Below, in pieces: positions 1-23,967 of a stretch of DNA of 23,967 nt. How positions within the stretch are numbered: the stretch's first letter is position 1; every line of letters starts with the position of its first letter. Source of the stretch: a virus; IMG/VR virus record IMGVR_UViG_3300024978_000198; one strand, given 5' to 3'. A program made the position numbers and the translations under genes. The notes below the pieces were generated by a model. The model was not told the DNA's origin and did no database searches. It worked only from the letters and a program-made list of their open reading frames with translations.

Positions 1-841
1 ACGTGCGGCAGGCGAAGCCGCCTTGTTCGAGCCGGACGGGGCGGATGCGCACCACGTCTCCGGTCAGTTCACATCGGTGCCGGAGAATCGGGTCGATATG
101 GCAGACGGCGTCCCAGCCGTTACTGATCGCCCCGGAAGCGTCGAACTGTGTCGCCGCCGGTCCGGGTCCGCCCCACTCGGCGGATTTCTCTGCCATCGCC
201 TCTGCGTCGGTGATGGTCACCCATGGGTTGTTCTTCTTGATCACGTCGATGGCTGCGCTGTCGGTGCAGCAATCGGAAAGCAACTTCATCAACACGCCGT
301 ACGGGTCTGATTTGTCCACGGTCAAGCCGAACGCCTTTAACCAGTCGGATAGCTTTGCCGGGTCGTACCTCTCGGGCAGGTAGAACTTCCGAGACAGCAC
401 GTCCGTCAATGCCGCGAATTTCGACGAGACGACGGCTGTCTTGGCGAAGGAAAGCATCCGATGCGCGGTGCGCACGTCAGCGGCCTGAGTATCGGTGAGC
501 GAGGATGTATCGACCGATCGGAGCAGCGCAAGACAGTCTCGTAAGGTCTTACCGTTGGTGGCGATCAGGATCCCGCCGACTTTGAGGGTGGCCGCTACCA
601 GGTCCTTCCCTGTGACTTCGATGGGCGCCTTGCCATGCTTCTGCATCATGGTCACGCCGCGGTGCTGGAACAGAAAGTGAGCGGATTGCTGCAGCGTCCC
701 CGAAGTGACGCGTACCGGCATGGATCGCTGTGACATGCGCACGATCGGGCGTCTGGCCTTGGTAGCCTCGGCTCGCTTGGCCGCGTCGTATCGGTCGAGT
801 GCGGCGCGGGTACCCAACGGCTTCTGGTTCGTCTCGCTCAT
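1..841 (-). CDS. Hypothetical protein, 3'-truncated by the window edge (>=280 aa), divergent from the helicase
   Basis: Absent from the ORF track because no stop lies in the window. Manual translation from ATG 841 (MSETNQKPLGTRAALDRYDAAK...IDPILRHRCELTGDVVRIRP...) stays open to base 1. The ATG lies exactly 9 nt after a CCGCACAT motif. Confidence 0.8.
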   Translation of the reverse strand, partial: MSETNQKPLGTRAALDRYDAAKRAEATKARRPIVRMSQRSMPVRVTSGTLQQSAHFLFQHRGVTMMQKHGKAPIEVTGKDLVAATLKVGGILIATNGKTLRDCLALLRSVDTSSLTDTQAADVRTAHRMLSFAKTAVVSSKFAALTDVLSRKFYLPERYDPAKLSDWLKAFGLTVDKSDPYGVLMKLLSDCCTDSAAIDVIKKNNPWVTITDAEAMAEKSAEWGGPGPAATQFDASGAISNGWDAVCHIDPILRHRCELTGDVVRIRPVRLEQGGFACRT

Positions 842-850
842 GTCTTGCTC

Positions 851-877
851 ATGTGCGGCATCTGCTTGGCACCCCCG
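851..877 (-). promoter_or_regulatory. Element-specific promoter motif copy 1 (CGGGGGTGCC-N9-CCGCACAT-N9-ATG 841)
   Basis: Exact motif and spacing shared with the other copies. Confidence 0.8.
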
Positions 878-922
878 GCCACTTGACTGTCGCGGGCTCT
901 TCACCGCAGTCCGGAGCTGTTG

Positions 923-949
923 CGGGGGTGCCAAGCAGATGCCGCACAT
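923..949 (+). promoter_or_regulatory. Promoter motif copy 2 (CGGGGGTGCC-N9-CCGCACAT-N9-ATG 959)
   Basis: Exact motif and spacing. Confidence 0.8.
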
Positions 950-958
950 GAATGGTTC

Positions 959-2248
959 ATGTTGAGCACCGATGACCTTGAAGATGAACTTGCCCCGTCT
1001 CCCCCCGACGAAGAGACCGTCGGCGACACGCACGCGAGCAAGTATGACGAAGGCCTGGTTCCGAAGCTGGTCCCCGGATCGGTCACTGCCAGAGTGCTGT
1101 ACCAGGCCTGGTCCGGGTCCCCGGTGACAATCGTGGACTCGCCCCCGGGAGCAGGTAAGTCCACCCTGATCACAACCGTGGTTTCGCACCTGCGAGCCGG
1201 AACCGACCTGGCCATCGTGATCGCGACACCGACCCGTCGCCAGGCGATCGATATCGCGCTTCGTATCGAGAAGGTCACCGCTCCGGAGACTGTGTTTCTC
1301 GATTTCAAGTCGTTCAAGGACTCGGAAGTCTCCGACTACGGGATGCTGGCGTTGAACCGGTTAAAGTCGCCGCGATTTCCTCGCTCGGGCAAGGATACGG
1401 TTGTCGTCAATACCCTCGCCTCAATCCGGCGGCGTCGGATGGACCTGGACGTCCTCTTTATTGATGAGGCATACCAGGCCACCTACGCCGACGTGCTTGC
1501 CTCAGCGGCCAAGGCCAAGCAGGTCGTCCTGGTCGGCGACCCAGGACAGATCGGGCCCGTCATTACCGTAGACACGTCAGCATGGGATCACCTCGACTAC
1601 AACCCCGCCGCCCGCGGCCCGGAGGTGTTCGCGCGTCGGGGGGACGCTTTCGTACTGAATCTCCCGGGAACGTACCGGCTGGGGGCGGAAACCGCTGCGG
1701 CGATCGCTCCGCTGTATGGCTTCGAGTTCGATTCGAAGCGCCCGCACCGAGAAATTGATGGACTGCGCGAAGTCGAGTCGATCGTGATGAACGCGGCGAA
1801 CGGCGCACATGATGTTTCGCTTCTGTCCGAAGTTGCTGGTGTCGCAACGAAAATCGTAGGACGGGATCTGATCGGGGATGGTTTTGAACGCCGCCAGATC
1901 GAACCGTCTGACGTGGCGATCGTCGTTCCGCATAACGTCCAGGTGTCGATTCTCAAAGGCGCGCTGGAATCGATGGGGATGCCCGGAATCACCGTCGGCA
2001 CCGCCGACAAACTGCAGGGAGGTGAGTGGGAGGCAGTCGTTGTTCTCGACCCACTGTTCGGCGTGTCAGCGATCGACAATCACTCGGCAAGCCTCGGCAG
2101 ACTCTGCGTGATGTGCTCCCGGCATCGGAGCCACCTGACTTTCATTCACGACAACGAGTGGAACGAACTGCTCGCCGCCGACGAGAACATGGCCGCGGGC
2201 GAATCCGACAAGGCCATCGCAGTCAGGAAGTCGGTGACCCATGGATGA
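959..2248 (+). CDS. Superfamily 1 (Upf1/DNA2-like, AAA_11/AAA_12-type) helicase, 429 aa
   Basis: Walker A SPPGAGKS, motif Ia ATPTRRQA, II DEAYQ, III VGDPGQIGP, IV TYRL, V TADKLQGGE, VI RLCVMCSRHR. Start moved to ATG 959 on the basis of the upstream motif. Confidence 0.9.
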   Translation: MLSTDDLEDELAPSPPDEETVGDTHASKYDEGLVPKLVPGSVTARVLYQAWSGSPVTIVDSPPGAGKSTLITTVVSHLRAGTDLAIVIATPTRRQAIDIALRIEKVTAPETVFLDFKSFKDSEVSDYGMLALNRLKSPRFPRSGKDTVVVNTLASIRRRRMDLDVLFIDEAYQATYADVLASAAKAKQVVLVGDPGQIGPVITVDTSAWDHLDYNPAARGPEVFARRGDAFVLNLPGTYRLGAETAAAIAPLYGFEFDSKRPHREIDGLREVESIVMNAANGAHDVSLLSEVAGVATKIVGRDLIGDGFERRQIEPSDVAIVVPHNVQVSILKGALESMGMPGITVGTADKLQGGEWEAVVVLDPLFGVSAIDNHSASLGRLCVMCSRHRSHLTFIHDNEWNELLAADENMAAGESDKAIAVRKSVTHG

Positions 2249-2672
2249 CGGCACCGAGGCGCCGCGCAGCACACTGACCCTTGTCACCGCCGCCGGCGAA
2301 GGGTACACAGCCCGACCCCTGATGCAGGAGGAGGCGTTCGCAATGTTGGAGAACACGTTCGACGACCGGTTTTTCATGGCGCAGCTGACCACGAAGATGT
2401 TCGCGTTCCTCACTGTGAACCAGAGCCCACATAATCGGATCGTGGGGCAGATAGCCCGGCACTACGGCGTCGTCGAATCGACGATCGCCGACTTTCGCGG
2501 AGACATCGTGATCGCCGGCAGAGCGAACATCTACGAGCGCACCGTAGCGCCACTCGACGAGATCCTGATCGGCCGGCTGATCGACCAGATCGTCGATCTC
2601 GGCGGTGCGTTGCCGTTCGAATCGGCGGCCGACGGCATGTTTTCGGGGGTGCCAGGATCTCGCCGCTCATAG
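2241..2672 (+). CDS. Hypothetical protein, 143 aa
   Basis: Overlaps the helicase stop by 8 nt (translational coupling); protein-like composition. Confidence 0.75.
   Translation: MDDGTEAPRSTLTLVTAAGEGYTARPLMQEEAFAMLENTFDDRFFMAQLTTKMFAFLTVNQSPHNRIVGQIARHYGVVESTIADFRGDIVIAGRANIYERTVAPLDEILIGRLIDQIVDLGGALPFESAADGMFSGVPGSRRS
2644..2670 (+). promoter_or_regulatory. Promoter motif copy 3 (CGGGGGTGCC-N9-CCGCTCAT), predicting +1 at G2680 for the non-coding RNA locus
   Basis: Same spacing as the other copies. No ATG follows; instead a 9-bp stem begins at 2681. Confidence 0.75.
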
Positions 2673-3014
2673 ATGGGGTGTCGGTTCGGTGATCGAGCCT
2701 CATCGGCTCGCCCGTCGATCCGAACCGAGGCGACGACTTCGGTAGTTGCGGGCCACGCGCCAGCGACGTTCCTTGATAACTGGACAGTGAACGAGATGTA
2801 ATTTCTCCTCAAGCCACGGGCCTGGGGAAGAGTGCGCGCCCGGCAGTTGATCGGGCAGCGAAACGTATCGGTCGGGAGCAACACCCGGCGCACTCGCGGG
2901 GACCGCCAATCCCGAAGCGGCGAGCTACGGCTCGGACGTGTCTAAGTCGGCGGCGGGTAGCCACGATACGGTTAGCGCCTCGGAAGGAACCGGAATCCGA
3001 ACGAGGCGCGCACT

Positions 3015-3087
3015 GCCTCGCTAGCTCAGCGGAAAGAGCAGCCGACTTCTAATCGGCAGGCCGGAGGTTCGAATCCTCCGCGGGGCG
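3015..3087 (+). tRNA. tRNA-Arg (anticodon UCU), CCA not encoded
   Basis: GCCTCGC TA GCTC AGCGGAAA GAGC A GCCGA CT-TCT-AA TCGGC AGGCC GGAGG TTCGAAT CCTCC GCGGGGC G: full cloverleaf. Confidence 0.95.
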
Positions 3088-3331
3088 CGCAGCCGTAACG
3101 CTTCGGCCGAAGCGGACCGGACTGCACTCAAGGTCCGCGCCAATAGAGCGGCGCCGGCTACTCGGGTTCGATCCCCGAGCAGGCTGGTTGCTAGACCGGT
3201 GGTCGCATTGCGCAAACTTGCGGCGCGGACCTTGAGTTTCGCTAGGTGCACAGCACGCCGGGGACGCCAGTTGACGGCACGGACTTGTGGGTCGCCTCGG
3301 CATCTCCGGTGAAAATCCGGGACAGCGAAAA

Positions 3332-3408
3332 CCCTTCGCGGGATTGGAATTCGGACTACCTGGGGCCCGGGTAGTCAGGCGCAGGTGAAAGCCCTGCCGA
3401 AGGGACCA
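3332..3408 (+). ncRNA. tRNA-like element with encoded ACCA end and no canonical anticodon loop
   Basis: CCCTTCG CG GGAT TGGA ATTC G GACTACC TGGGGCCCG GGTAGTC AGGC GCAGG TGAAAGC CCTGC CGAAGGG A CCA: 7-bp acceptor, 5-bp T stem with 7-nt loop, mini D arm, extended anticodon arm. Confidence 0.75.
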
Positions 3409-3409
3409 G

Positions 3410-3482
3410 ACCTCGTTAGCTCAGCTGGCAGAGCAACCGACTTTTACTCGGTGGGCCGCAGGTTCGATGCCTGCACGAGGTA
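3410..3482 (+). tRNA. tRNA-Lys (anticodon UUU), CCA not encoded
   Basis: ACCTCGT TA GCTC AGCTGGCA GAGC A ACCGA CT-TTT-AC TCGGT GGGCC GCAGG TTCGATG CCTGC ACGAGGT A: full cloverleaf. Confidence 0.93.
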
Positions 3483-3987
3483 CTGACCGCGCAGGTTCGA
3501 CTCCTGCCCCTGCAGACGACCGGGATGGCCACCGAAAGCTTCGGCCCGGCGCTTGTGGCACCGTGCGGCAGCGGGCGGACGTCTTATGGACCCGATTGAT
3601 CGAGGATCGGCCGAGTCCGAAGATGGGGATCAGCGGGAACTTTCCGGAACGTGCATCCGCCGGCCGTGCGAGATTCGGCAGTCTTAAACGACCCGACGAT
3701 GATCAGTGCGCCCATCAAAAAGCTCTTACGCTGAGCATCCCGCGTCAACGGGACCCTCAGCCCCGACGGACCAAGACTAGGTCGGTTCTATTCCGGGCGA
3801 CCCAATCCCTCTCATCGGCGGTTCCCACCCGGCGTCGATGTGATGTCCAGTGCTCATACCGGGTGGGCATTCTCGTCTCGTTCGCTGTCCAGTCAATCGG
3901 GAGCGCTGCTGGCTCATGGTTCGCCCCCGTGCGCAGCCGCTTCTTCGGTGGTTGAGCTACTTCGACTGAGAACAGGTGGTTTGCACA

Positions 3988-4596
3988 GTGCTCCTGTCCG
4001 ACAGGGACATCCTCGCGCGCATCGATGAACAGTCGATTGTCATCGCGCCGTTCATCGACACAGCAATGCAGCCGTCAAGCCTTGATGTTCGGCTCGATCG
4101 GCTCTTCCGGGTGTTCAACAATTCTCGGTATACCCATATCGACCCGTCCTTGCGGCAGGACGATTTGACATCAGAGGTCGAGGTTGCGGCCGACGGCAGC
4201 GAACCATTCGTACTGCACCCCGGAGAGTTCGTTCTGGCGTCTGTCCTGGAGTTCGTCGCGCTTCCAGATGACGTGTCCGCACGCCTTGAGGGAAAGTCGT
4301 CGCTCGGGCGGCTCGGGTTGCTCACTCACTCGACGGCCGGGTTCATCGATGCTGGCTTCCGCGGCCACATCACGTTGGAGCTCTCTAATGTGGCGAACCT
4401 GCCTATCGTGCTGTGGCCGGGAATGCGTATCGGCCAGTTGTGCTTCTTTCAGCTGTCGTCACCAGCGTTAGCTCCGTACGGGTCCGAGATGACGGGGTCG
4501 CACTATCAGGGTCAGCCGGCGGGACCGGCGCCGTCGAAGTCGTACGAGAGATTCACCAAGGGGATCGAGGTCGGCAACAATCATGCGCGCCGCTGA
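3988..4596 (+). CDS. dcd: dCTP deaminase
   Basis: (M)[48 protein letters not shown]; GTG start after an AGGTGG Shine-Dalgarno sequence. Confidence 0.95.
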
Positions 4597-9736: not shown

Positions 9737-9927
9737 GCCACGTCCGCCATTACCGCCGACAAGTCGCGCGGATGTACCGATCTGCTGTAGCCGCAGCCAT
9801 CGAACTGAACCATGACGAACGTTTCTCGGACGTCGGTGATCGTCACGGTACTGACTACGGATCCGGTGAAGGCACGGTACTCGACTCGCTGATCGCGAAG
9901 ACTCTTTGCCTGCTCAATGGTCATCAC
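9733..9927 (-). CDS. Small hypothetical protein, 64 aa
   Basis: 4-nt start/stop overlaps on both sides within the operon. Confidence 0.65.
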   Translation of the reverse strand: MMTIEQAKSLRDQRVEYRAFTGSVVSTVTITDVRETFVMVQFDGCGYSRSVHPRDLSAVMADVA

Positions 9928-10905: not shown

Positions 10906-13900
10906 CTACGCCGCCTTTGCGAGCGCCGCTGCCCCGCCAGAAACACGCTCGACCACAGGCTGACGTTCGATGCCTTTTGCTACGCCGACTAGAACCATCA
11001 CCAAGTTCGGGTTGTCCCCAATGATCGGTTCGGTTCGCTCGCCTTCAGACAGGCGCGAAGGAATCGTGTCGTTCTTATCGACCAGCTTGTTGCGGTCCCT
11101 GTTGATGAACAGCCGCAAGGTGCGGATCCACTTCTTGTCCAGGTGGAATTCTAGGTGCTTGCGCACATCGCGCCCCTCCGGAATAGGGACCGTGAAAATG
11201 TCATACGTGCCCCCTCCCGACTCCGCGGATAGGCCGGATGCACTGTCCGCCGCAGGCGTGCGATCCAGAACCGATGGGATGCCGGACTGTTCTGCGTCCG
11301 CGGTATCACTGACACCCTGGGGATCGTGATCGGTGACGGTGCTGTGCTCACCGGTTTCGGGGGCGCCGTCGCCGAACAGTCTGACCAGCTCTCCCATCCC
11401 GACCGCGTCGATCACTGTCTCGGACACCGAGTCGTCATCAACTTCGACGGGAATGATCTCGAAGGCGGTGATCTCCTTTCTGGTCTCTTCTTCATCGACC
11501 GACTCCATGTCTTCGACGCCGTCTGTCTCCAACTCATTGGTGCGCGGGCGCGCCTTCGATGTCTTGATTCGCCCATGAACTGCGATGATGTCGCCGGCCT
11601 TCGGCATGGTTCCCGAACGGGAGAGTCGGCGCACCATGTTGTCGAACGCCAGCACCGGGATGGACTCCTTTGATCCTTCGAGCAGGAGCTTCATCAGTCG
11701 CTTCCCATCGCCGTACATTCGCTCCTCGATCCCCGAGGCGATCCCAAGTGTGAAGACCGCGTCGCCGTCTTCTCCTGTGATCTTGTGAATCTGGGTCGGC
11801 CTGCCATTGTTGTTTTCGTCGCCGTAGCTCCAGCTCTTCAGCTGCCTGCTGTGCCGGCTGAGTGGACTGATCGACAACAGCACCCCGAGCCGACTTCGTT
11901 CCTTGACGGACCTGCGCAGTGAAGAGAACTCGTCATCGGGCACCTCGCACTCCAGGTGCGTGCGCAAGCTTCCCATCGCCATCAGGCTTCCCTTGCGCGT
12001 GAAGGTAACTCGCCCTCCCCCACTGACCGGGAACGTGTCGCATGCGCCCGCCTCGATGAGGGCTCTGGTCGACGCGTTGGTGATGGGCGCTTGCCCGTTG
12101 GCGCCGTCGACGACAACTCGGTTCATCAAGTTGGCGAGTGATCGGTAGGTGCCGTGTGTTGTTCGATTCGACACGATCGCCGAGGCGACGTCACTTCCTA
12201 CACCTTTGATTTCACCGAGCCCGAGCCGGACAACCAGTCGGGAGTCGTCGTCGGTCAGCACCGCTTCGGAGGTGATACCGCTCTCGCATACGGATGGCGG
12301 CAGGACGGTGACACCGTCAGCTCGGAGCGCTGCCAGCACGGCGGCGCGTCGCTCGTCGGAGTCGGTGGCCGAGAGCGTTGCCGCGCCGTATTGCACCGGC
12401 CAGTTCGCCTTGAGGAACGCGGTGATGTAGGCGACGAAGCCGTACGCTGCCGAATGCGACTTGTTGAACAGGTAGTCGCCGGCACCCTTCATCGAGTCCC
12501 ACACCTTGATCGCGGTGTCTTTGGCGAACGAGATCTTCTGGACCGTTCCGTCGGCGTCGACGATTTGACGCTGCGCTCCGTCGACGAAAAGCTTGCCGAC
12601 AGCGGCCATCTCGTCGTGCTTCTTCTTGGATACCGCTCTGCGGAGCCGGTTGTTCTCCGCTGGGCCGAAGCCTGCCACTACCGTGCCCAGGCGCATGAGC
12701 TGCTCCTGGTAGATCGACACGCCGTAGGTGTCGCCCAGCACGGAGGCGATGACTTCCTGCTCGTCAGTGTCCTCGGTGAAGATTGAATAGTCGATCGGCT
12801 CTTCGCCGTGCTTCCGACGGGCGTAGAGATCGTGGAATCCAGCCGATAACGGGCCTGGTCGGTACAACGCCACCAGAGCAGAAAGCTCTTCGATCGATTC
12901 GGGGCGCACTGCTTCGGTCAGTGTGGTCATGCCGGAGGACTCCAGCTGGAACACGCCGGTCGTCTTTCCGGCGGCGAGCATCGCCCACGTCTTGGCGACC
13001 ATGGGGTTGTTCGGGTCGGTGGGTAGCTTCTCAGGATCGAAGGTCTGAGCAAATTCCGACTGATCGGTCGCCCGGATCTGCCGGACCGACTCGGTGATGA
13101 TGTCGAGGTTGCGTAGGCCGAGCACGTCGAGCTTGAGCAGTCCCATGTCGGCGACGTCTTTGCCGTCAAACTGGGTGACCCAGTCGCTGCGGTCGGCGCG
13201 GCGGTCTTTGCGCAGCGGGACCATCGGTGCGAGTGGTTCGGTGGAAATGATGACGCCGCAGGCGTGCACGCCCTCGTTGGAGATGACTCCTTCGATCGTG
13301 CGGGCAGCATCGAACACTTCGCGGGCCTGCTTGTCGCCGGCAAGCTCTTCCCTCAGTAGCTCACCCGAGGCGAAGCCCGGATTGGCGATGTCAGCGAGTG
13401 TCGTCGATAGTCCGGGGATCAGGTTGGCAAGCTTGGTGCCGAGCTTGACAGAGGTGTCGGCAGGCAGCATTGAGCGTGCGGCGTTCTTCAGCGACTGCCG
13501 GGCCCGCGAGAAGCCGAAGGTGCCGAGTCGCGCAACGCGGTCCTCACCCCACCGCTGCTTCAGGTGCGCGAAGATCTCGCCCTGGTGTGCCTGCTCGAAG
13601 TCCAGGTCGATGTCGGGCATCTCCTCGCGGGTGTCGTCGAGGAACCGCTCGAATAGCAGGTCGAACTGCAGCGGGTCGATCTGAACGATCCCCAGACAGT
13701 AGGAGACCATCGAGCCGGCGGCAGAACCCCGCCCCGGGCCGACCCGGATCCCATTGCTCCGAGCCCAAGTGACCAGGTCGTGCACGATGAGGAAGTAGTC
13801 GATGAAACCGAGGCGTCCGATGACCTTGAGCTCGTGATTGAGCCGGTCCTTCACGTCCGGGCGCCCGGTTGGCCAGTCATCGCCGTAGCGCTCGGCGGCA

Positions 13901-15146: not shown

Positions 15147-15743
15147 TCAACTGGCCAGCGCCGGGGTATCGAATACATGCGCGGCAGGAGCACGGCACCC
15201 CCGCGTGTCGCGGGCTTGCGCCTTGAGTAGGCGTCGAAAGGCGAAGATCCAGGCGTCCAGAGGCGCGACGAAAATGTCCGGGTCGCCGTTGTAGCGGACG
15301 ACGGCGATACGCCGCCGCCGGGGCATGCCGATGTTCTCCAGCTTGATGTGCTCAAGTGCCCTGGGGACCGTCGAAAACACGGCCAGCTCATCCTCAGGTG
15401 GGGCGCCGGTGGGCCACGCGGTGGTCGATGCGACCCAGCGAATCGACCCCTTTCTGACGCGTGGCATGCACGACATTCCGAAGTGGATTCCAGTGCCGGC
15501 GTTGACGGACTGCACCTCGGCCCCGAGCGCCGCCTCACGTACTGATTGCGCGACCTTCGAGGGCCAGTACTTCACCTGAATGGTCACGCCTTCGATGGCA
15601 TGGAGATCACCCGTGTCGAGCTTCCGGCCGGCTCCTAGTTTTCGCTGGGCCATCGGGACGAGCATCTCCGGTGCCATCTCGCGAAGGACTTCCACGGCTT
15701 CGCGTTCTTTCGCGTCGCCCTTGGCCTTGTTGGGGTTCGTCAT
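15147..15743 (-). CDS. PD-(D/E)XK nuclease, Holliday-junction-resolvase-like, 198 aa
   Basis: NPNKAKGDAKERE, DTGDL and TIQVK match the phage/archaeal-type Hjc pattern. Confidence 0.8.
   Translation of the reverse strand: MTNPNKAKGDAKEREAVEVLREMAPEMLVPMAQRKLGAGRKLDTGDLHAIEGVTIQVKYWPSKVAQSVREAALGAEVQSVNAGTGIHFGMSCMPRVRKGSIRWVASTTAWPTGAPPEDELAVFSTVPRALEHIKLENIGMPRRRRIAVVRYNGDPDIFVAPLDAWIFAFRRLLKAQARDTRGCRAPAAHVFDTPALAS
15177..15203 (-). promoter_or_regulatory. Promoter motif copy 7 (CGGGGGTGCC-N9-CCGCGCAT) inside the resolvase 3' end, pointing at dnaE; predicted +1 at 15167
   Basis: Exact motif and spacing; the predicted +1 is an A on the minus strand. Confidence 0.75.
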
Positions 15744-18484: not shown

Positions 18485-18745
18485 ATGAACAGGATTCTCA
18501 ATGGCCATCGGGTCGCCATCACTGGCGCATTGACCGGTCCGCTACGGGGACTGCACCGTCAGGACGCGTTCCGTCTCATCGAGTCGCTCGGCGGCATCCC
18601 GAGCAAGTCCGTTTCATCCAGTACGACACTGCTAGTCTCCTCTCGATTTAGTACCGTAAAAATAGCTCGGGCGACGAAACTTGGAGTGAAGATCATCTCG
18701 TCCTCGGACCTCGCGGTACTTCTAGGGAACAGGACGTTATGGTGA
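18485..18745 (+). CDS. Stand-alone BRCT domain protein, 86 aa
   Basis: VAITGAL...R.DA..LIESLGG...SVSSSTTLLV...K..RA.KLGVKIIS, as in the LigA/RFC-type BRCT. Confidence 0.85.
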   Translation: MNRILNGHRVAITGALTGPLRGLHRQDAFRLIESLGGIPSKSVSSSTTLLVSSRFSTVKIARATKLGVKIISSSDLAVLLGNRTLW

Positions 18746-19938
18746 CACAGGGCAAGATCACCACAGAAAAGACTCCAGCACAGCAGGCCGTCATCGGACG
18801 GCACCCGGTGTTCGACACCAATTTGCTCACTGTTGGGTACTGGCTACCATCGCGGTCGGTCACTGGTGGGCCAGAAACTTCCGATCCGACCACCCTCTTG
18901 GTGTCTCGGCTGCTCGCCGTGGGGCCGAATAGGGTCGTCGGGGCGAAATGTGTGTTCATGACCGCCGACATCAGATCGTTGATTCAGGGGGCACTTTTGC
19001 TGCTGCCGCCTGGACGCAGCGTGGTGCACATCCCTGACAAGGTGCATACATCTCATGAGACCGTCTCGGCTGCACGGACCCTCGTCCACACCGGGGTGAA
19101 GATCTCTGTCACCAAGCAGCGCATCGACGATCCCGACGACGCCATGTCTCGGCTCGCTGAAATAGTACGGATCGATGTGAACGCCGCTGGTGTCGATGGA
19201 GTGGTCAGCCTGGCCGACGAGCTGATGCGTCGGGATGTCTCCGTGTCTGCCTATCAGATCAAGAGAAAAGATCATCTCTCGAAGATTCTTCGGTCGAAGG
19301 TGGCCCTGCTGCAGGGGTCCGCATTGGCGCAGCCGTCGTTCCGCGGCGGACTCATTTTGCCTATCTCGGCGATGGCGGCCGTTAGAGTCGCGGCTATCGC
19401 GCTGGACTCGTCGATCGACTTGGCTTCGTTGGAGCGCACTATATCGGCGGATCCGGGGATGATGCTGCAGCTGATGTCGGTGGCATCGATCGGCCGGCTC
19501 GGTCAGACGCGACGAAACGTGCGCTCCATCCGCGAGGCGCTCGTGTTCATGGGCGAAAACCGCGTCCGAGCCTGGGCTACGCTGCTCGTGCTCAAGAACC
19601 TCGGCACGGTAGACATTGACTCGATCCTCACTGCGTTGATGCGCGGGCGGATGTGCGAGCTGCGATGCTCGGGGCACTCCGACTCAGCAGTGGCGTTCAT
19701 CGCCGGGATCGTCTCGGCTCTCGACATCCTCACCGGCGCCAGCTACGACAAGCTGCGCAAGACGATATCGATCAACGAAGAGATCATGGCGTCGGCGTTC
19801 GACCGGAAAGGGCCGATCGGGAGGATCGTGGACGAAGTAATCGATTTCGAGATGGGCGTCGGGCACACGCCAGCGCTGGAGTCGATCGCCGCCGAAGCAC
19901 TTCGGTGGGGCATCGAGTCCATCGATTCACTTACCTGA
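18739..19938 (+). CDS. Degenerate EAL + HDOD domain protein (YuxH/PdeH-like architecture), 399 aa
   Basis: N-terminal GRHPVFD...GY, VRIDV, LLQG; C-terminal HDOD: ISADP, VRSIREALVFMG, ALMRGRMCE, AFIAGIVSALD. Confidence 0.8.
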   Translation: MVTQGKITTEKTPAQQAVIGRHPVFDTNLLTVGYWLPSRSVTGGPETSDPTTLLVSRLLAVGPNRVVGAKCVFMTADIRSLIQGALLLLPPGRSVVHIPDKVHTSHETVSAARTLVHTGVKISVTKQRIDDPDDAMSRLAEIVRIDVNAAGVDGVVSLADELMRRDVSVSAYQIKRKDHLSKILRSKVALLQGSALAQPSFRGGLILPISAMAAVRVAAIALDSSIDLASLERTISADPGMMLQLMSVASIGRLGQTRRNVRSIREALVFMGENRVRAWATLLVLKNLGTVDIDSILTALMRGRMCELRCSGHSDSAVAFIAGIVSALDILTGASYDKLRKTISINEEIMASAFDRKGPIGRIVDEVIDFEMGVGHTPALESIAAEALRWGIESIDSLT

Positions 19939-20089: not shown

Positions 20090-20986
20090 TTAGGCGACCG
20101 GATCGCCTTTCTGCGCGACGTCCAGCAGGAATGCGGCATACGGGGTGGTGTCAGCGGTGCGGAACATCGCGGCGAGAGCGAGCTGATACTCAGGGGCTCT
20201 CGCCGCAGGTATCGCGATCGCCTCGAAGCCGTGAGTCATCAATTCGCCGTCCGCCATGTACCTCGCTGTGCGCTTGTTCCCGTCGAAGTACATCTGCAGG
20301 TAGCTCGCCATGGCGGCGTAATTGACCGCTCGAAGCACAGGATGAACGATCGCGCTGGTGCGTTCGGCGAGCACATTCTCGGAGGCTGCGAGCGTCTCCT
20401 TGTCTGGTGCGTAGAAGATATCACCCATCACATTGACGGTCGCGCCCTTGCCGTCCGAGTTGACTATTGAGTGATTCCGACGCACCCCTGGAAAGATCGC
20501 CTCGTTGCGCGCCAGCACGCCGTTGAGTTCATCAGAGGTGTCCAAGTCGAGACGAAACGACCGTCCGCGGACCTTGTTAACCAGGAGTTCAGATGCCTCG
20601 GTCAGATCAAGAATCTGATCGACATCGGTCACGTCTTTGCCGTCAGGGGCCGTTCCCTCCAGAAGGGTGTAGACCTCGGGCAGGGTGAACGAGTTTCCTT
20701 CCAGGAAGGCGCTGGAAAAGGCAAATTCGGCGCGACGTTCTACGTATCGAGCGATCGCACGATCACGGGTGTGAGATCGGAAGCGCCCCAGGTCTGCGTC
20801 GGACGCGGCCAACAGTCGGAGGTCCTTCAGCCCAACTGCCCGGTATTCAGCTTCTGCAGAGACTAGGGATACACCTTCAGGTTCCCCGGCTCTGCGATAC
20901 CTGGATCGCATGGATCCGCCGGGCATCCCACCGACCCCCTTGACCCGGTACTGGTTCGTCCCTATCCCGCCGCCCGTCTTGCTCAT
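20090..20986 (-). CDS. Fic/Doc family protein, 298 aa, non-canonical active site
   Basis: QMYFDGNKRTAR in place of HPFxDGNxRxxR; N-terminal inhibitory motif SAFLEGN. Confidence 0.88.
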   Translation of the reverse strand: MSKTGGGIGTNQYRVKGVGGMPGGSMRSRYRRAGEPEGVSLVSAEAEYRAVGLKDLRLLAASDADLGRFRSHTRDRAIARYVERRAEFAFSSAFLEGNSFTLPEVYTLLEGTAPDGKDVTDVDQILDLTEASELLVNKVRGRSFRLDLDTSDELNGVLARNEAIFPGVRRNHSIVNSDGKGATVNVMGDIFYAPDKETLAASENVLAERTSAIVHPVLRAVNYAAMASYLQMYFDGNKRTARYMADGELMTHGFEAIAIPAARAPEYQLALAAMFRTADTTPYAAFLLDVAQKGDPVA

Positions 20987-21639
20987 CGCGGCAACACCTC
21001 TGGCACCTCAGTCCGGTCGAGTGACAGGAGGTAGTCGCGGAAGGACACTGCGGTCTCCTGCGAGTCCCAGAAATTCGGATCGAAACGGTTGGGAGCCAAT
21101 ATCTCCGGCTCGCCGATGGTCGTCAGACTCTCGGTGAGTGAGCACAGCTCCTCGAAGACATTGCTTCCGGCTGTCACCTCGTTCGCGGCGATCTCGATCG
21201 CTCTCTTCGCATCGATCATGTTTCCATGTTCGGCTTCTGGGGGTACGCCGAGTCGTCGCTTGAGTCTCCTCCGGATACGGATAATGTCGCGTGCATCCTT
21301 GTAGGTCTGGACATCTATGCCGCCAGGGACACGCCCATCGATCAGCATCTGGGATTCCAGGTGGCTGAGCCCGAGCTGCACGAGAAGTCGCCGTGTTCCT
21401 TCCTCCCATGAGCGGCCTCGGCTGATCCTCCTCGCGGTGTCCGATTTGATCGTGCGAGCCTGCTCCTTGGAGACGATGCCGGGTCGCCACGTGGCGAGAT
21501 CGCTGAATGACCAGAAGTTCACTCCGCCGGCACGCCGACGGGGCTTCGGGGCCTGTCCGCGCGCAACGTAGGCGCGAAACGTCGACGGGGATACCCCCAC
21601 GACTTTCGCTGCCTCGGTTGAGGTGAGTTCGGACTGCAT
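20983..21639 (-). CDS. AlpA/MerR-like HTH protein coupled to the Fic gene, 218 aa
   Basis: LTSTEAAKVVGVSPSTFRAYVARGQAPKP...W; ATGA overlap with the fic start. Confidence 0.8.
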   Translation of the reverse strand: MQSELTSTEAAKVVGVSPSTFRAYVARGQAPKPRRRAGGVNFWSFSDLATWRPGIVSKEQARTIKSDTARRISRGRSWEEGTRRLLVQLGLSHLESQMLIDGRVPGGIDVQTYKDARDIIRIRRRLKRRLGVPPEAEHGNMIDAKRAIEIAANEVTAGSNVFEELCSLTESLTTIGEPEILAPNRFDPNFWDSQETAVSFRDYLLSLDRTEVPEVLPR

Positions 21640-21667
21640 AGTGCCACTATACAGCTAATCCGCTGTA
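21638..21667 (-). promoter_or_regulatory. SigA-type -10 (TATAGT, 6 nt before the ATG, leaderless) overlapped by two palindromes
   Basis: ATAGTG-C-CACTAT (21638-21650) and TACAGC-N6-GCTGTA (21650-21667). Confidence 0.6.
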
Positions 21668-21766
21668 GGATCTAGGTCATGGCTGTCGCACCCTGAGGTC
21701 GGTGGGACCCGTCCTCGTCCGGTCTCAGAGTTTAGAACCAGGGTCCACCTTGGGTGATGCGGTCAG

Positions 21767-22108
21767 CTAGAAGCAGTCGCAAACCTGGTCGCCGTACTCA
21801 TCCACCTCGCCGGTGGGCGGAGGGTAGTAGAAGTTGTCGGAATCTCCCCGGCGACATGCGCCCATGGCTCTTTGAGCGTGAGTCGGGTCGCCGGTGTGCC
21901 GCCAGATGTCATTGCAGTACGCAACGCCATGGACAACTCGCAAGAGGGAGGGATCTGTCGGACCGTCTCCGCAGGGGCACGGAGCGGTCTGCCGGACGGG
22001 CGCCCCGTGATCGAGCTCGATGTCCGGCTCATCGTGCTTTCCGGGAGCGAACTTTCCGCCCAAAGACGCCGGCGAACCCTTGGAGTGCCGGAGATGGTTG
22101 GTGTCCAT
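21767..22108 (-). CDS. Cys-rich hypothetical protein, 113 aa, with the N-terminal GG(K)FA tag
   Basis: MDTNHLRHSKGSPASLGGKFAPGKHDEPDIELD...CPC...C...C...CDCF; ATG 9 nt after CCGCGTAT. Confidence 0.75.
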   Translation of the reverse strand: MDTNHLRHSKGSPASLGGKFAPGKHDEPDIELDHGAPVRQTAPCPCGDGPTDPSLLRVVHGVAYCNDIWRHTGDPTHAQRAMGACRRGDSDNFYYPPPTGEVDEYGDQVCDCF

Positions 22109-22117
22109 GCATCTTCT

Positions 22118-22125
22118 ATACGCGG
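22118..22125 (-). promoter_or_regulatory. Proximal half-motif variant CCGCGTAT-N9-ATG 22108
   Basis: One mismatch; exact spacing. Confidence 0.55.
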
Positions 22126-22330
22126 GCACCGACTCCGAGCAGCACCAACCGTTCCCGGGGTGCCTCCATGGCGGAGCCTTAAACACTCCGGAACGAGTCA
22201 CTTCCACACCAGTGGCGATTACCCACGATAAGTGACATTATCCCAGCTGGACCCGTCTACCGACGAGACCAGCGACACGCCGGCCGATATGTTGAATCGT
22301 TCGCTCCACCACGATTCGGTCTCCGTTGGG

Positions 22331-22356
22331 CGGGGGTGCCAACGGACCCCGCGCAT
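22331..22356 (+). promoter_or_regulatory. Promoter motif copy 8 (CGGGGGTGCC-N8-CCGCGCAT-N9-ATG 22366)
   Basis: Both boxes perfect; spacer of 8 nt. Confidence 0.75.
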
Positions 22357-22365
22357 AGATCTGAC

Positions 22366-22791
22366 ATGAGGGGCACCGCCAGGACTTCGACACGATCCGC
22401 CCAGGTTGGGCACAATGGGGCGCATAGCCAGATTTCCTCGCGACATGCGGAGGATGCAATGCGGAGATTGACAACGTTCACGCCGACCGAAGTCGCGGAC
22501 ATGATCGGTGCCACTGAGTGGTGGGTGCGCGAGCAGGCCAAGAACCGCAATGTGCCTCACATCCGACTCGGCCGCGGCAAGGTTATGTTCCGCGAGTCCG
22601 ATGTCCTGGCGTTGCTGGACGCCATCGCTGTGCAGCCTCGCTCGGGAGCGTCGGTCTCGATCGATGACGATTCGCCTGACCACGGTCCTGCTGCTGATAG
22701 CGGGACATCCGAGTTGACCATGAAGGAAGTAGCCCTCCTGGCCGGTGTGTCGCCGCGAGCGGCCGCGCGGATGGCCCGCTCTGCCAGCTAA
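22366..22791 (+). CDS. xis: Excisionase-like HTH_17 DNA-binding protein (start 22366 by the motif; a later ATG at 22459 is possible)
   Basis: FTPTEVADMIGATEWWVREQAKNRNVPHIRLGRGKVMFRESDV; adjacent to the integrase. Confidence 0.8.
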   Translation: MRGTARTSTRSAQVGHNGAHSQISSRHAEDAMRRLTTFTPTEVADMIGATEWWVREQAKNRNVPHIRLGRGKVMFRESDVLALLDAIAVQPRSGASVSIDDDSPDHGPAADSGTSELTMKEVALLAGVSPRAAARMARSAS

Positions 22792-22794
22792 GTG

Positions 22795-23967
22795 TCAGCT
22801 GGCAATTCCGTATAGCGCCCGTTCGGCAGCTGCTGCAGCGTCAATGTGCTGTTGCGGCAGCAGATGCGAGTAGCGATCGACGGTCGTGGTGATCGACTCG
22901 TGGCCCAGTCGCCGCTGCAGCACCATCAGATCAGTCCCCTGCGCGATCATCCACGAGGCGTGAGTGTGGCGCAGGTCGTGGATTCTGGGCGTCTTCACAA
23001 GGTGCTTGGCGGCGAGGTCCAAGTTGCCGTCTGGATCGACCGGGTTCTGCGCCTTCTCGATGGCAGGTCGCCAGGTCTTCCACCAGAACGTGTTGTGCCG
23101 GACGCGACCGCCCTCTTTGTTGACGAATACCAGGCTGTCGCGACTCTTCCCGCTAAGTGACTCCTTGATCTTCACCGCCAGCTGGGTAGGCAACGACACG
23201 GTTCGCCTGCCGCGGAACGTCTTGGTCGGTCCGACGTAGAACTGGTTTGAATCGTCGCGCTTCCACGCCTTGTTTACACGCACTGTCGGCGGCGCAGCGG
23301 AGAGGTCGCAGTCGGCGACCGTCAGCGCGGTGATCTCGCCCCAGCGGAGCCCGGTAGCAACCATTGTCTCTACGAGCAGTTGGTACGGCTCGGCGATCTT
23401 CGACAAAAGGAGCTCGAACTCATCCCTACTCAAGAAGTTCATCGTGTCGCCAGCCGACACGGACTTCGGCAGCTTGATCCCGTCGCAAGGACTCGATCCG
23501 ATCGCGCCCTTGCGCACCTGCGTCTTCATCGCTGACGAGAGAAGCCCATGCACATTTCGGATCGTCTTCGCCGCCAGACCTTTGCCCTGCAGCATGGAGA
23601 CCCAGGCGATGACATCGTCGGTCTTGACTGTCGAGACCGGCATCTGACCGATTGCGCCCGACATGTGGTTCGCGACCTGGCGGCGGTAGCGCGCCTTCTG
23701 CTCGACCGAAGCGCTCAGGAGTTTGTCGATGTGGTCGAGCACTGCGTCCGACACGGTGGTCTCGCCTCGCCTCGTTGCGGCGATCGACAGCGTGGCTTTG
23801 GTTTCATCTCCGCCTGCCACTTCGATCACGCGTGCGAAGGTCTCAGCCTCGGCCTCGCTCATGAACACGAGCGACTTACGGGTGCGGGCGTCTCTGTCGG
23901 TGACCCACCAGCGAACCCGGAATCTCGGCTCACCGCGTGAGGTTTCGTATGCGTCGACCTTAGCCAT
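22795..23967 (-). CDS. int: Tyrosine integrase, 390 aa
   Basis: Arm-binding N-terminus (RFRVRW), TGLRWGE, HDLRH and LGHESITTTVDRY give the complete catalytic set. Confidence 0.96.
   Translation of the reverse strand: MAKVDAYETSRGEPRFRVRWWVTDRDARTRKSLVFMSEAEAETFARVIEVAGGDETKATLSIAATRRGETTVSDAVLDHIDKLLSASVEQKARYRRQVANHMSGAIGQMPVSTVKTDDVIAWVSMLQGKGLAAKTIRNVHGLLSSAMKTQVRKGAIGSSPCDGIKLPKSVSAGDTMNFLSRDEFELLLSKIAEPYQLLVETMVATGLRWGEITALTVADCDLSAAPPTVRVNKAWKRDDSNQFYVGPTKTFRGRRTVSLPTQLAVKIKESLSGKSRDSLVFVNKEGGRVRHNTFWWKTWRPAIEKAQNPVDPDGNLDLAAKHLVKTPRIHDLRHTHASWMIAQGTDLMVLQRRLGHESITTTVDRYSHLLPQQHIDAAAAAERALYGIAS

Follow-up and report, generated by a model that had tools for sequence, protein, structure and literature searches.

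An rrn-type boxA and closing helix frame two tRNA genes and candidate small RNAs on a putative actinobacterial mobile element

The window analysed here is a stretch of 23,967 nt, filed as IMG/VR virus record IMGVR_UViG_3300024978_000198. Near one end of it, between a promoter motif and the dcd gene, only two tRNA genes lie amid ~900 nt of other RNA, which raises the question of what this locus makes. A preliminary description, written from the letters and open reading frames of the window, had proposed a single ornate RNA of ~1.1 kb (2680..3790) with nested tRNAs, either a divergent GOLLD-type RNA or an undescribed class. In our analysis, a reading with slightly better than even odds (roughly 0.55) is that of a non-coding cassette with an rrn-type frame, probably transcribed from the promoter of the element as one precursor, which processing would turn into two tRNAs and several small RNAs, including tRNA mimics. 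Unless a strand is given, all features below are on the plus strand.

The element and the extent of the cassette

The proteins of the window include a superfamily-1 helicase, a dCTP deaminase, WhiB, ArdC, DnaE, Fic and a tyrosine integrase. The helicase shares 41-43% identity with proteins of Arthrobacter-group plasmids of 375-440 kb and 48% identity with a protein in a Nakamurella MAG; its closest relatives (P0002-P0005) are 52-54% identical. Therefore, the window points to being part of a large actinobacterial plasmid or integrative element, as far as its sequence tells. DNA of the window is present in bioreactor and wastewater metagenome runs, and any of four among them may be where it came from. 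At 36 loci with relatives of the helicase, no tRNA cassette was found within 10 kb, only two single tRNA-Leu genes, and the upstream 143-aa ORF gave no relative besides itself.

An element-specific promoter motif is located at 2645..2674. This motif, drawn by eye as a pattern from the copies in the window and in the contig with the sister cassette (L047, see below), occurs seven times in the window, compared with at most one occurrence in 100 shuffles, and four further times in L047, while it was found at none of the 36 loci of related elements. Five of the seven window copies are followed by N5-ATG, and by this spacing the predicted +1 of the copy at the locus is placed at G2680. The same start had been predicted earlier from the motif, and the proposal that the unit is driven by the element's own promoter agrees with the presence of the motif upstream. 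The 9-bp stem that was said to begin at 2681 is found in the sequence (2681-2689/2720-2728), and all 12 motifs quoted in the preliminary description were located where it had put them. Hairpins are predicted for the leader upstream of boxA (2681..2743), and the segment 2673-2810 as a whole folds no better than shuffles (z -0.43).

Four ORFs over the locus have coding scores of -0.03 to -0.37, which marks them as non-coding; among ten reference genes, nine scored +0.11 to +0.34 and one scored -0.11. The non-coding nature of the proposed ~1.1-kb unit thus holds, but its 3′ end does not lie at 3790, as the unit runs to ~3960 and includes a trailer arm at 3873-3924. The hairpin 3′ of this arm (3929..3960) is a predicted fold and a possible weak terminator, which a terminator scan did not call; dcd follows downstream of the cassette, after this hairpin. 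Within the frame, the units are arranged in the order A, tRNA-Arg, M, B1, B2, tRNA-Lys, orphan T-arm and C. Most of them abut with gaps of 0-1 nt, module ends coincide with tRNA ends, and the framed insert measures ~1.07 kb. A structured non-coding unit around the tRNAs, as first described, is therefore retained, with a modular make-up instead of that of a single ornate RNA.

A boxA and a leader-trailer helix around the locus

The leader arm (2748..2799) contains an rrn-type boxA at 2769-2781 and pairs with the trailer arm (3873..3924). At the level of DNA, 2748-2796 and 3876-3924 constitute the longest inverted repeat of the region. As RNA, the closing helix comprises 46 pairs, seven of them G-U, with an energy of -76 kcal/mol. 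Among 3162 tiles of the window, which have a mean of -29.6 kcal/mol (sd 5.4), the best partner of the leader arm is 3873-3924, and the next unrelated tile reaches -53.6 kcal/mol. We regard this boxA and leader-trailer frame as solid. The preliminary description had overlooked it. Two convergent sigma-70-like sites at 2773-2802 (+) and 3896-3869 (-) were dropped as promoters because they are both arms of the closing helix. The trailer spacer (D, 3799..3872) contains a 9-bp stem (3824-3832/3859-3867; z -0.11 for the spacer) and aligns to the rrn trailer region in one of two operons compared (z 4.4).

The stretch 2769-2789 is identical at 15 of 21 and 16 of 21 nt to the sequence just upstream of the 23S rRNA in two actinobacterial genomes, and the 16S-leader version of this stretch has a similar pairing with the 16S trailer. 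A pattern built on the boxA arm gave matches in 26 of 301 genomes; rrn operons made up 24 of the 25 loci returned, and the match in the 26th genome (G794) was a non-rrn one. While the position of the stretch in rrn leaders is shown by these comparisons, its name is our assumption, as we take the actinobacterial sequence at 2769-2781 to be a boxA. In E. coli, according to the accessible part of the source, boxA loads an antitermination complex and the rRNAs are flanked by long leader-trailer helices (PMC10250234). These rrn helices are cut by RNase III, as stated in the available portion of a second paper (PMC11404451).

The locus thus shares with an rrn precursor the boxA in the leader and the long helix between leader and trailer. 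An enclosed rRNA was not found, as there is no Rfam SSU or LSU match, and A, M, B and C show no significant alignment to the two rrn operons. Judged by its sequence, the locus would work like an rrn frame but is no rrn operon. At four other plasmid tRNA arrays, three of which were rescanned, neither a boxA-type site nor a standout closing helix was seen, suggesting that the frame is not general to such arrays. The literature covered, mostly non-subscription, contained no report of a boxA and leader-trailer frame around a tRNA array.

A sister cassette came to light when contigs were mapped to the locus: a second contig, of matching depth, contains a diverged copy of 3145-3218. The entries L045-L047 from the metagenome scan are one DNA, here called L047. 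It possesses 24 tRNA genes called by ARAGORN and four more recognised by Rfam or by eye, with an HNH gene downstream. Its frame shares the boxA-like site, is closed by an inverted repeat of 22 nt (9790-9811 / 12658-12679), extends from tRNA-Tyr to tRNA-Cys and encloses a plain 2.85-kb tRNA array. Alignment of the two closing helices over 20 pairs showed four double changes, one single change, 11 unchanged pairs and four broken ones. The lead of the helix partner over the next-best tile is slim in L047 (-32.9 vs -32.1 kcal/mol). The strand asymmetry of pairing also differs, since the plus strand is favoured in the window, whereas in L047 the minus strand pairs better than the plus. The depths of the window and L047 in three data sets were 98 vs 94.7, 244 vs 253 and 2.8 vs 2.3, respectively. 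From these depths and the common promoter motif, rather than from a joining contig, it is likely that both cassettes are carried by one replicon.

Units inside the frame

Both nested tRNAs of the preliminary description were called by ARAGORN and Rfam at the positions given there, namely tRNA-Arg(UCU) at 3015..3088 (67 bits in Rfam) and tRNA-Lys(UUU) at 3410..3483 (64 bits). The tRNA-Arg(UCU) of the window is identical to the tRNA-Lys(UUU) of L047 at 56 of 74 nt and, on this comparison, seems to descend from a Lys(UUU) gene; the L047 array, as far as that contig extends, contains no Arg(UCU). In 11 genes of the window, AGA accounts for 19 of 306 Arg codons and AAA for 38 of 172 Lys codons. Behind tRNA-Lys lies an orphan T-arm (3486..3515, hairpin 3491-3507), which is identical to the T-arm of tRNA-Lys at 16 of 18 nt. 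A search for its 5′ half found none, and the T-arm is likely what remains of a tRNA that was deleted or duplicated. Outside the tRNAs, T-loop hairpins occur four times (3166, 3309, 3385 and 3495), while none of 2000 shuffles contained more than one; the T-loop and cloverleaf patterns were set after inspecting the sequence.

The best-folding part of the locus is its middle (z -4.3), which the preliminary description had left undescribed. Module M (3089..3237), which is unclassified, begins at the base directly 3′ of tRNA-Arg and consists of a 5′ hairpin and a stem of ~14-16 bp, which encloses a T-loop arm along with a single-stranded block that is conserved. It has one homologue, L047:9925-10077 (E 8e-20), located behind tRNA-Tyr, which is the first of the tRNAs that the frame of L047 encloses. 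Both copies fold well, with z -5.8 in the window and z -4.0 in L047. Comparison of the two copies showed that six of the 39 modelled pairs are changed on both sides, five of these in the closing stem, compared with 0-1 in slid controls, and that the T-loop arm and the single-stranded block are nearly invariant. Since the covariation comes from two sequences and the structure was drawn from the same two, it speaks for the stems without amounting to a formal test of covariation. In L047, module M is present without A, B or C. The sequence downstream of M is unrelated between the two loci; that of L047 folds well (z -3.4) and is not homologous to B.

No Rfam family matched M in either locus. A model built from the two sequences (R1) detected no third copy in 40 sources, five plasmids and 35 + 61 genomes, and M together with B gave no homologue in GTDB samples of 35 and 301 genomes. 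T-loop hairpins of Streptomyces phages were rejected as homologues of M, as they reached ~19 bits with the M model and covered the hairpin alone.

Module B1 (3238..3331) is uncertain: its outline is weakly cloverleaf-like, the central arm is long, and a T-loop hairpin lies at 3305-3321. When it is folded alone, its 6-bp closing stem has a probability of 0.7-1.0 and its T-arm one of 0.17; no homologue of B1 was found. Module B2 (3332..3408), in contrast, forms a 77-nt tRNA-like cloverleaf as its minimum-energy fold alone and ends 1 nt before tRNA-Lys. It contains a perfect 7-bp acceptor, the discriminator A, an encoded CCA, a T-loop and a 4-nt D loop. In its central arm, a perfect 10-bp stem carries a loop of 3 nt; this arm exceeds a normal anticodon arm by 6 nt, which makes decoding unlikely. 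Thus B2 has the 7-bp acceptor, T arm and CCA end of a canonical tRNA but lacks the 5-bp anticodon stem and 7-nt loop. In line with this, neither RF00005 nor ARAGORN called B2 at default settings, and a relaxed threshold was needed to call it, at which most of the 29 calls were spurious. It aligns to no tRNA of the L047 array. A descriptor of B2 matched once in the window, in none of 2000 shuffles and nowhere in 1.33 Mb of control DNA.

The fold of B2 depends on its context. For B2 alone, the D arm has a probability of ~0.2 and the T arm of ~0.4. When B1 and B2 are folded together, an alternative fold lies 5.2 kcal/mol below the B2 cloverleaf, and the cloverleaf helices have a probability of ~0.07. 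M and B2 are nonetheless credible as new small RNAs, on the strength of a single homologue and a single descriptor test, and the mostly non-subscription literature covered yielded no report of either module.

The two outer domains are less clear. Domain A (2800..3014) is closed by 2831-2840/3005-3014, a perfect 10-bp helix that ends flush with the 5′ end of tRNA-Arg, as had been noticed earlier; a perfect helix of at least 10 bp was present in only one of 100 shuffles of domain A. The folding of A itself is in the range of z -1.6 to -2.3, and the claim of a structured 335-nt 5′ domain proved only borderline (z -1.96). In the favoured fold of A, the helix CGTATCG/CGATACG, which had been proposed as crossing, takes a nested position. 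Domain C (3518..3798) contains predicted hairpins at 3730-3761 (p 0.99) and 3769-3783 (p 0.75). Contrary to the 3′ domain with nested stems and crossing helices that had been described, this part folds no better than shuffles (z +0.88; z -0.34). It possesses 13 perfect helices of at least 6 bp, a number matched by 18 of 100 shuffles and thus expected by chance, so that crossing helices or pseudoknots are unproven here; ViennaRNA, moreover, cannot score crossings. For calibration of the fold test, a real GOLLD 3′ domain and ROOL gave z -1.4 and three raiA RNAs gave -2.1 to -2.5. Because GOLLD and ROOL themselves score as low as this, a weak z does not exclude structure.

Neither A nor C has a homologue in the plasmid, phage and viral searches, in L047 or in GTDB samples of 401 genomes for each. 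The best genome matches of A, C and M+B were short chance alignments, blastn of the locus and its parts against plasmids and phages returned tRNA or chance matches only, and scans of IMG/VR for parts of the locus gave none or chance matches only. The core of a group I intron has the order P3-P4-P6-P7-P8, with P8 directly following P3. By eye, the helix order of C is core-like, but C was rejected as such an intron since it has no Rfam match, no P8 after the candidate P3 and no exons. Fragments of rRNA and a permuted tmRNA were likewise rejected as identities of the modules for lack of support.

Readings of the locus and comparison with known systems

In the reading that we prefer, transcription would start at G2680 from the promoter of the element. 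By likeness to rrn operons, Nus factors would assemble at boxA and keep the polymerase going over 1.3 kb of untranslated RNA, after which the closing helix would form and probably be cut by host RNase III. RNase P would cut at 3015, 3332 and 3410, and 3′ trimming would free the pieces. The two tRNAs may then top up the decoding of AGA and AAA. M and B2 appear to keep the elbow (T-loop) of a tRNA without a usable anticodon and, by analogy, are most likely tRNA-shape mimics, which could act as processing handles or as decoys for enzymes that bind or cut tRNAs. A, B1 and C would be folded spacers or putative further small RNAs.

Since M recurs without A, B and C, and since the module ends are tRNA ends, a single RNA with nested tRNAs is less likely. 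Such an RNA would be one large ornate molecule of ~1.07 kb, analogous to GOLLD or ROOL, in which A and C fold together and the tRNAs, M and B lie in the linker, possibly with formation of a cage. A GOLLD linker can indeed carry tRNAs, according to the accessible part of PMC12286853, and the release of rRNAs by a helix closing the whole RNA, as found in the consulted part of PMC10250234, provides a precedent for the frame; yet in L047 the same frame holds the plain array, and M travels on its own. An imperfect helix between A and C (2807-2822/3543-3558) could bring the two domains together, but helices of this type are common in the helix list. Similarly, the loops in M and B2 are self-complementary, but their self-dimer energies fall within or near the shuffle range, with -18.9 for M, equal to the best of eight shuffles, and -15.6 for B2 compared with -12.5 for its best shuffle. 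Therefore, self-dimerisation of the modules was rejected as lacking support. The weak folding of C is no bar to this ornate RNA, given the z of -1.4 for the real GOLLD 3′ domain and ROOL, while the canonical look of both tRNAs and the CCA end of B2 speak against it.

Matches to known large RNAs are lacking as well. The two halves of the locus (3484-3900 and 2660-3409), scanned separately against Rfam, gave no GOLLD or ROOL match at E<=10, so that the suggested divergent GOLLD-type RNA was not borne out. The same Rfam library gave 196.7 bits for a GC-rich mycobacterial GOLLD (L002), used as the positive control. Overall, we consider the single ornate RNA unlikely. A bolder form of it is equally doubtful, namely that the 1.07-kb insert represents a new class of giant structured RNAs of actinobacterial megaplasmids, which would be made and released like rRNA, be built from tRNA-elbow modules (M, B1 and B2) and two tRNAs, and fold or oligomerise as an analogue of GOLLD and ROOL unrelated to them in sequence, with M as a mobile RNA domain reused in the tRNA array of the element.

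The locus could also be a second tRNA array in decay, with two working tRNAs, with B1, B2 and the orphan T-arm as degenerate copies, and with A and C as GC-rich spacers. The orphan T-arm without its 5′ half is what decay would leave behind, but B2 does not look decayed, with its perfect 7-bp acceptor, perfect 10-bp arm and CCA, and it aligns to no array tRNA. Although C folds like shuffles, and no homologues of A, B and C were found in the 301-401 actinobacterial genomes sampled for each, the 14-bp stem of M has been kept through five double changes and the 46-bp helix is intact. Decay of an array is thus a quite unlikely explanation. Least probably, B1 and B2 would be antisense RNAs of the C4 type, tRNA-like in shape and freed by RNase P, and would regulate genes of the element, a role that would suit the 77-nt cloverleaf of B2 with its remodelled central arm, C4 RNAs being RNase P-processed cloverleaves, but that is opposed by the lack of an Rfam C4 match and of any complementary match of at least 11 nt for B2 in 39 kb of element DNA, in which no module exceeds shuffles.

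Returning to the framed cassette with small-RNA cargo, the frame provides sharp ends for RNAs that are missed by Rfam and by tRNA finders. It delimits two small candidates, M as a covarying module without a family and B2 as a tRNA mimic that ends in CCA and lacks an anticodon loop. If M and B2 are stable, they would bear on the non-tRNA cargo of plasmid and phage tRNA arrays and on why GOLLD- and ROOL-like RNAs occur in tRNA arrays.

Compared with known systems, the locus resembles GOLLD (RF02032) in being large, non-coding and close to tRNAs on a mobile element, with tRNAs between 5′ and 3′ folded regions. In GOLLD, the 3′ region is conserved and tRNAs can be present inside the RNA, according to the accessible parts of the sources (10.1101/2024.12.08.627333; PMC12286853; PMC12990946; PMC6582537). 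However, the position near tRNAs on a mobile element and the tRNA inside are not specific to this family, and the conserved 3′ domain was undetected in the locus, where C shows, by eye, only a few short look-alike words in a different order. The 5′ part of the locus compared with the 5′ domain of one mycobacterial GOLLD, a part outside the Rfam model, gave z -0.2 to 1.6, and the GOLLD model had no match in L047 either.

With ROOL, the locus shares a 58-nt local alignment of 3301-3358 to the L. salivarius RNA, and the ROOL model (RF03087) gave no match, with a control (L102) at 130.4 bits. This likeness of B was rejected: it reaches z 6.6 against shuffles, but four of 4040 tiles score at least as high, two of them B itself, and the two others, unrelated dnaE tiles, outscore B, whose match is centred on a generic T-loop word. 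For raiA (RF03072), no match was found with controls at 122-155 bits, and pairwise z was at most 1.9; the ROOL and raiA comparisons drew on the accessible parts of PMC12968392 and PMC12515178, while those of PMC10383478 and PMC5643018 contained nothing decisive for the family comparison. YrlA (RF02553) had no match over M in either locus, and no Ro60/TROVE domain occurs among 22 window and 15 L047 proteins. Like YrlA and C4 look-alikes, B2 possesses acceptor, D and T arms and CCA, and M carries a T-loop arm on a helix; in contrast to them, both lack a model match and the CCA end of B2 is open. M and B2 may belong to an undescribed RNA class.

The accessible parts of two papers (PMC6582537; PMC4758250) describe horizontally transferred arrays of tRNA genes that come with an HNH gene and in some cases with GOLLD. 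L047 is such an array, sharing the frame and module M with the window cassette. A tRNA array unit is defined in the consulted portion of PMC4758250 by at least 20 tRNA genes, a number that L047 reaches; the window cassette, in contrast, has two tRNAs among its ~900 nt of other RNA. The closest parallel of the frame is found in rrn operons, where a long helix likewise encloses the entire cargo and has a boxA-type sequence in its leader arm. Unlike in rrn operons, the cargo here consists of tRNAs and unclassified modules without rRNA, and the locus lies on a mobile element under the promoter motif of that element. Combined, these findings suggest that the conjugative-type element borrows host signals for the transcription and processing of rRNA in two places, around a full tRNA array and around a mostly non-tRNA cassette.

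The tRNA array of the sister contig

The metagenome contig L047, which probably belongs to the same element as the window, carries an array of about 28 tRNAs (L047:9778-12679), the frame of which consists of a boxA-like site together with a leader-trailer helix of 22 nt. Its tRNA-Trp lies immediately outside this frame and an HNH gene comes after the array, while the Tyr, His and two Ser tRNA genes of the array were not called by ARAGORN. Comparison of the window tRNA-Arg(UCU) (3015-3088) with the tRNA-Lys(UUU) of L047 showed that the first 14 nt are shared and that 56 of 74 nt are identical. Because of this shared sequence, an anticodon switch is suggested to lie behind the tRNA-Arg(UCU).

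On the 3' side of module M, the unit common to both cassettes that has a T-loop arm within a long stem, L047 contains a second well-folded spacer (L047:10070-10251; z of -3.4 against shuffled sequences), which ends in a 13-bp hairpin ahead of tRNA-Gly. No relationship of this spacer to module B of the window or to any Rfam family was found.

Promoter motif copies and neighboring genes

The cassette promoter motif is contained in the last codons and the stop of a 143-aa ORF (2241-2672, plus strand), whose codon use is gene-like and which has zero relatives among 5.8 billion proteins. A divergent pair of motif copies with near-identical cores (841-875, minus strand; 922-953, plus strand) precedes the helicase gene and an unnamed ORF running leftward. 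Another copy, at 15201 on the minus strand and a short way upstream of dnaE, falls within the 198-aa ORF; no N5-ATG follows it. In L047, the motif is situated in front of a TnpB/Cas12f-like gene of 633 aa (L047:2644-4545).

Elsewhere in the window, the 5' part of dcd (4001-4160) folds strongly, most of all on the minus strand (z of -4.5 and -3.0). The regions 18485-19938 and 20090-23967 hold genes with BRCT and HDOD domains, as well as a Fic gene that has an HTH partner. They also include an HTH gene resembling excisionases, which adjoins the integrase at the end of the window.

Related features on other elements

Unannotated intergenic T-loop hairpins were observed in Streptomyces phages (L007:1499-1525 and L008:1498-1525). 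The phage hairpins, with 29 records matched, are near-identical to the T-arm of module M, and the remainder of the module is absent from them.

Neither GOLLD nor ROOL was found at three tRNA-array loci of Arthrobacter and Curtobacterium megaplasmids, which possess 33-37 tRNAs and a predicted tmRNA (L001:17112-17499, L003:4592-4982 and L004:7309-7699). At two of these loci, an RNA ligase is encoded within the tRNA array.
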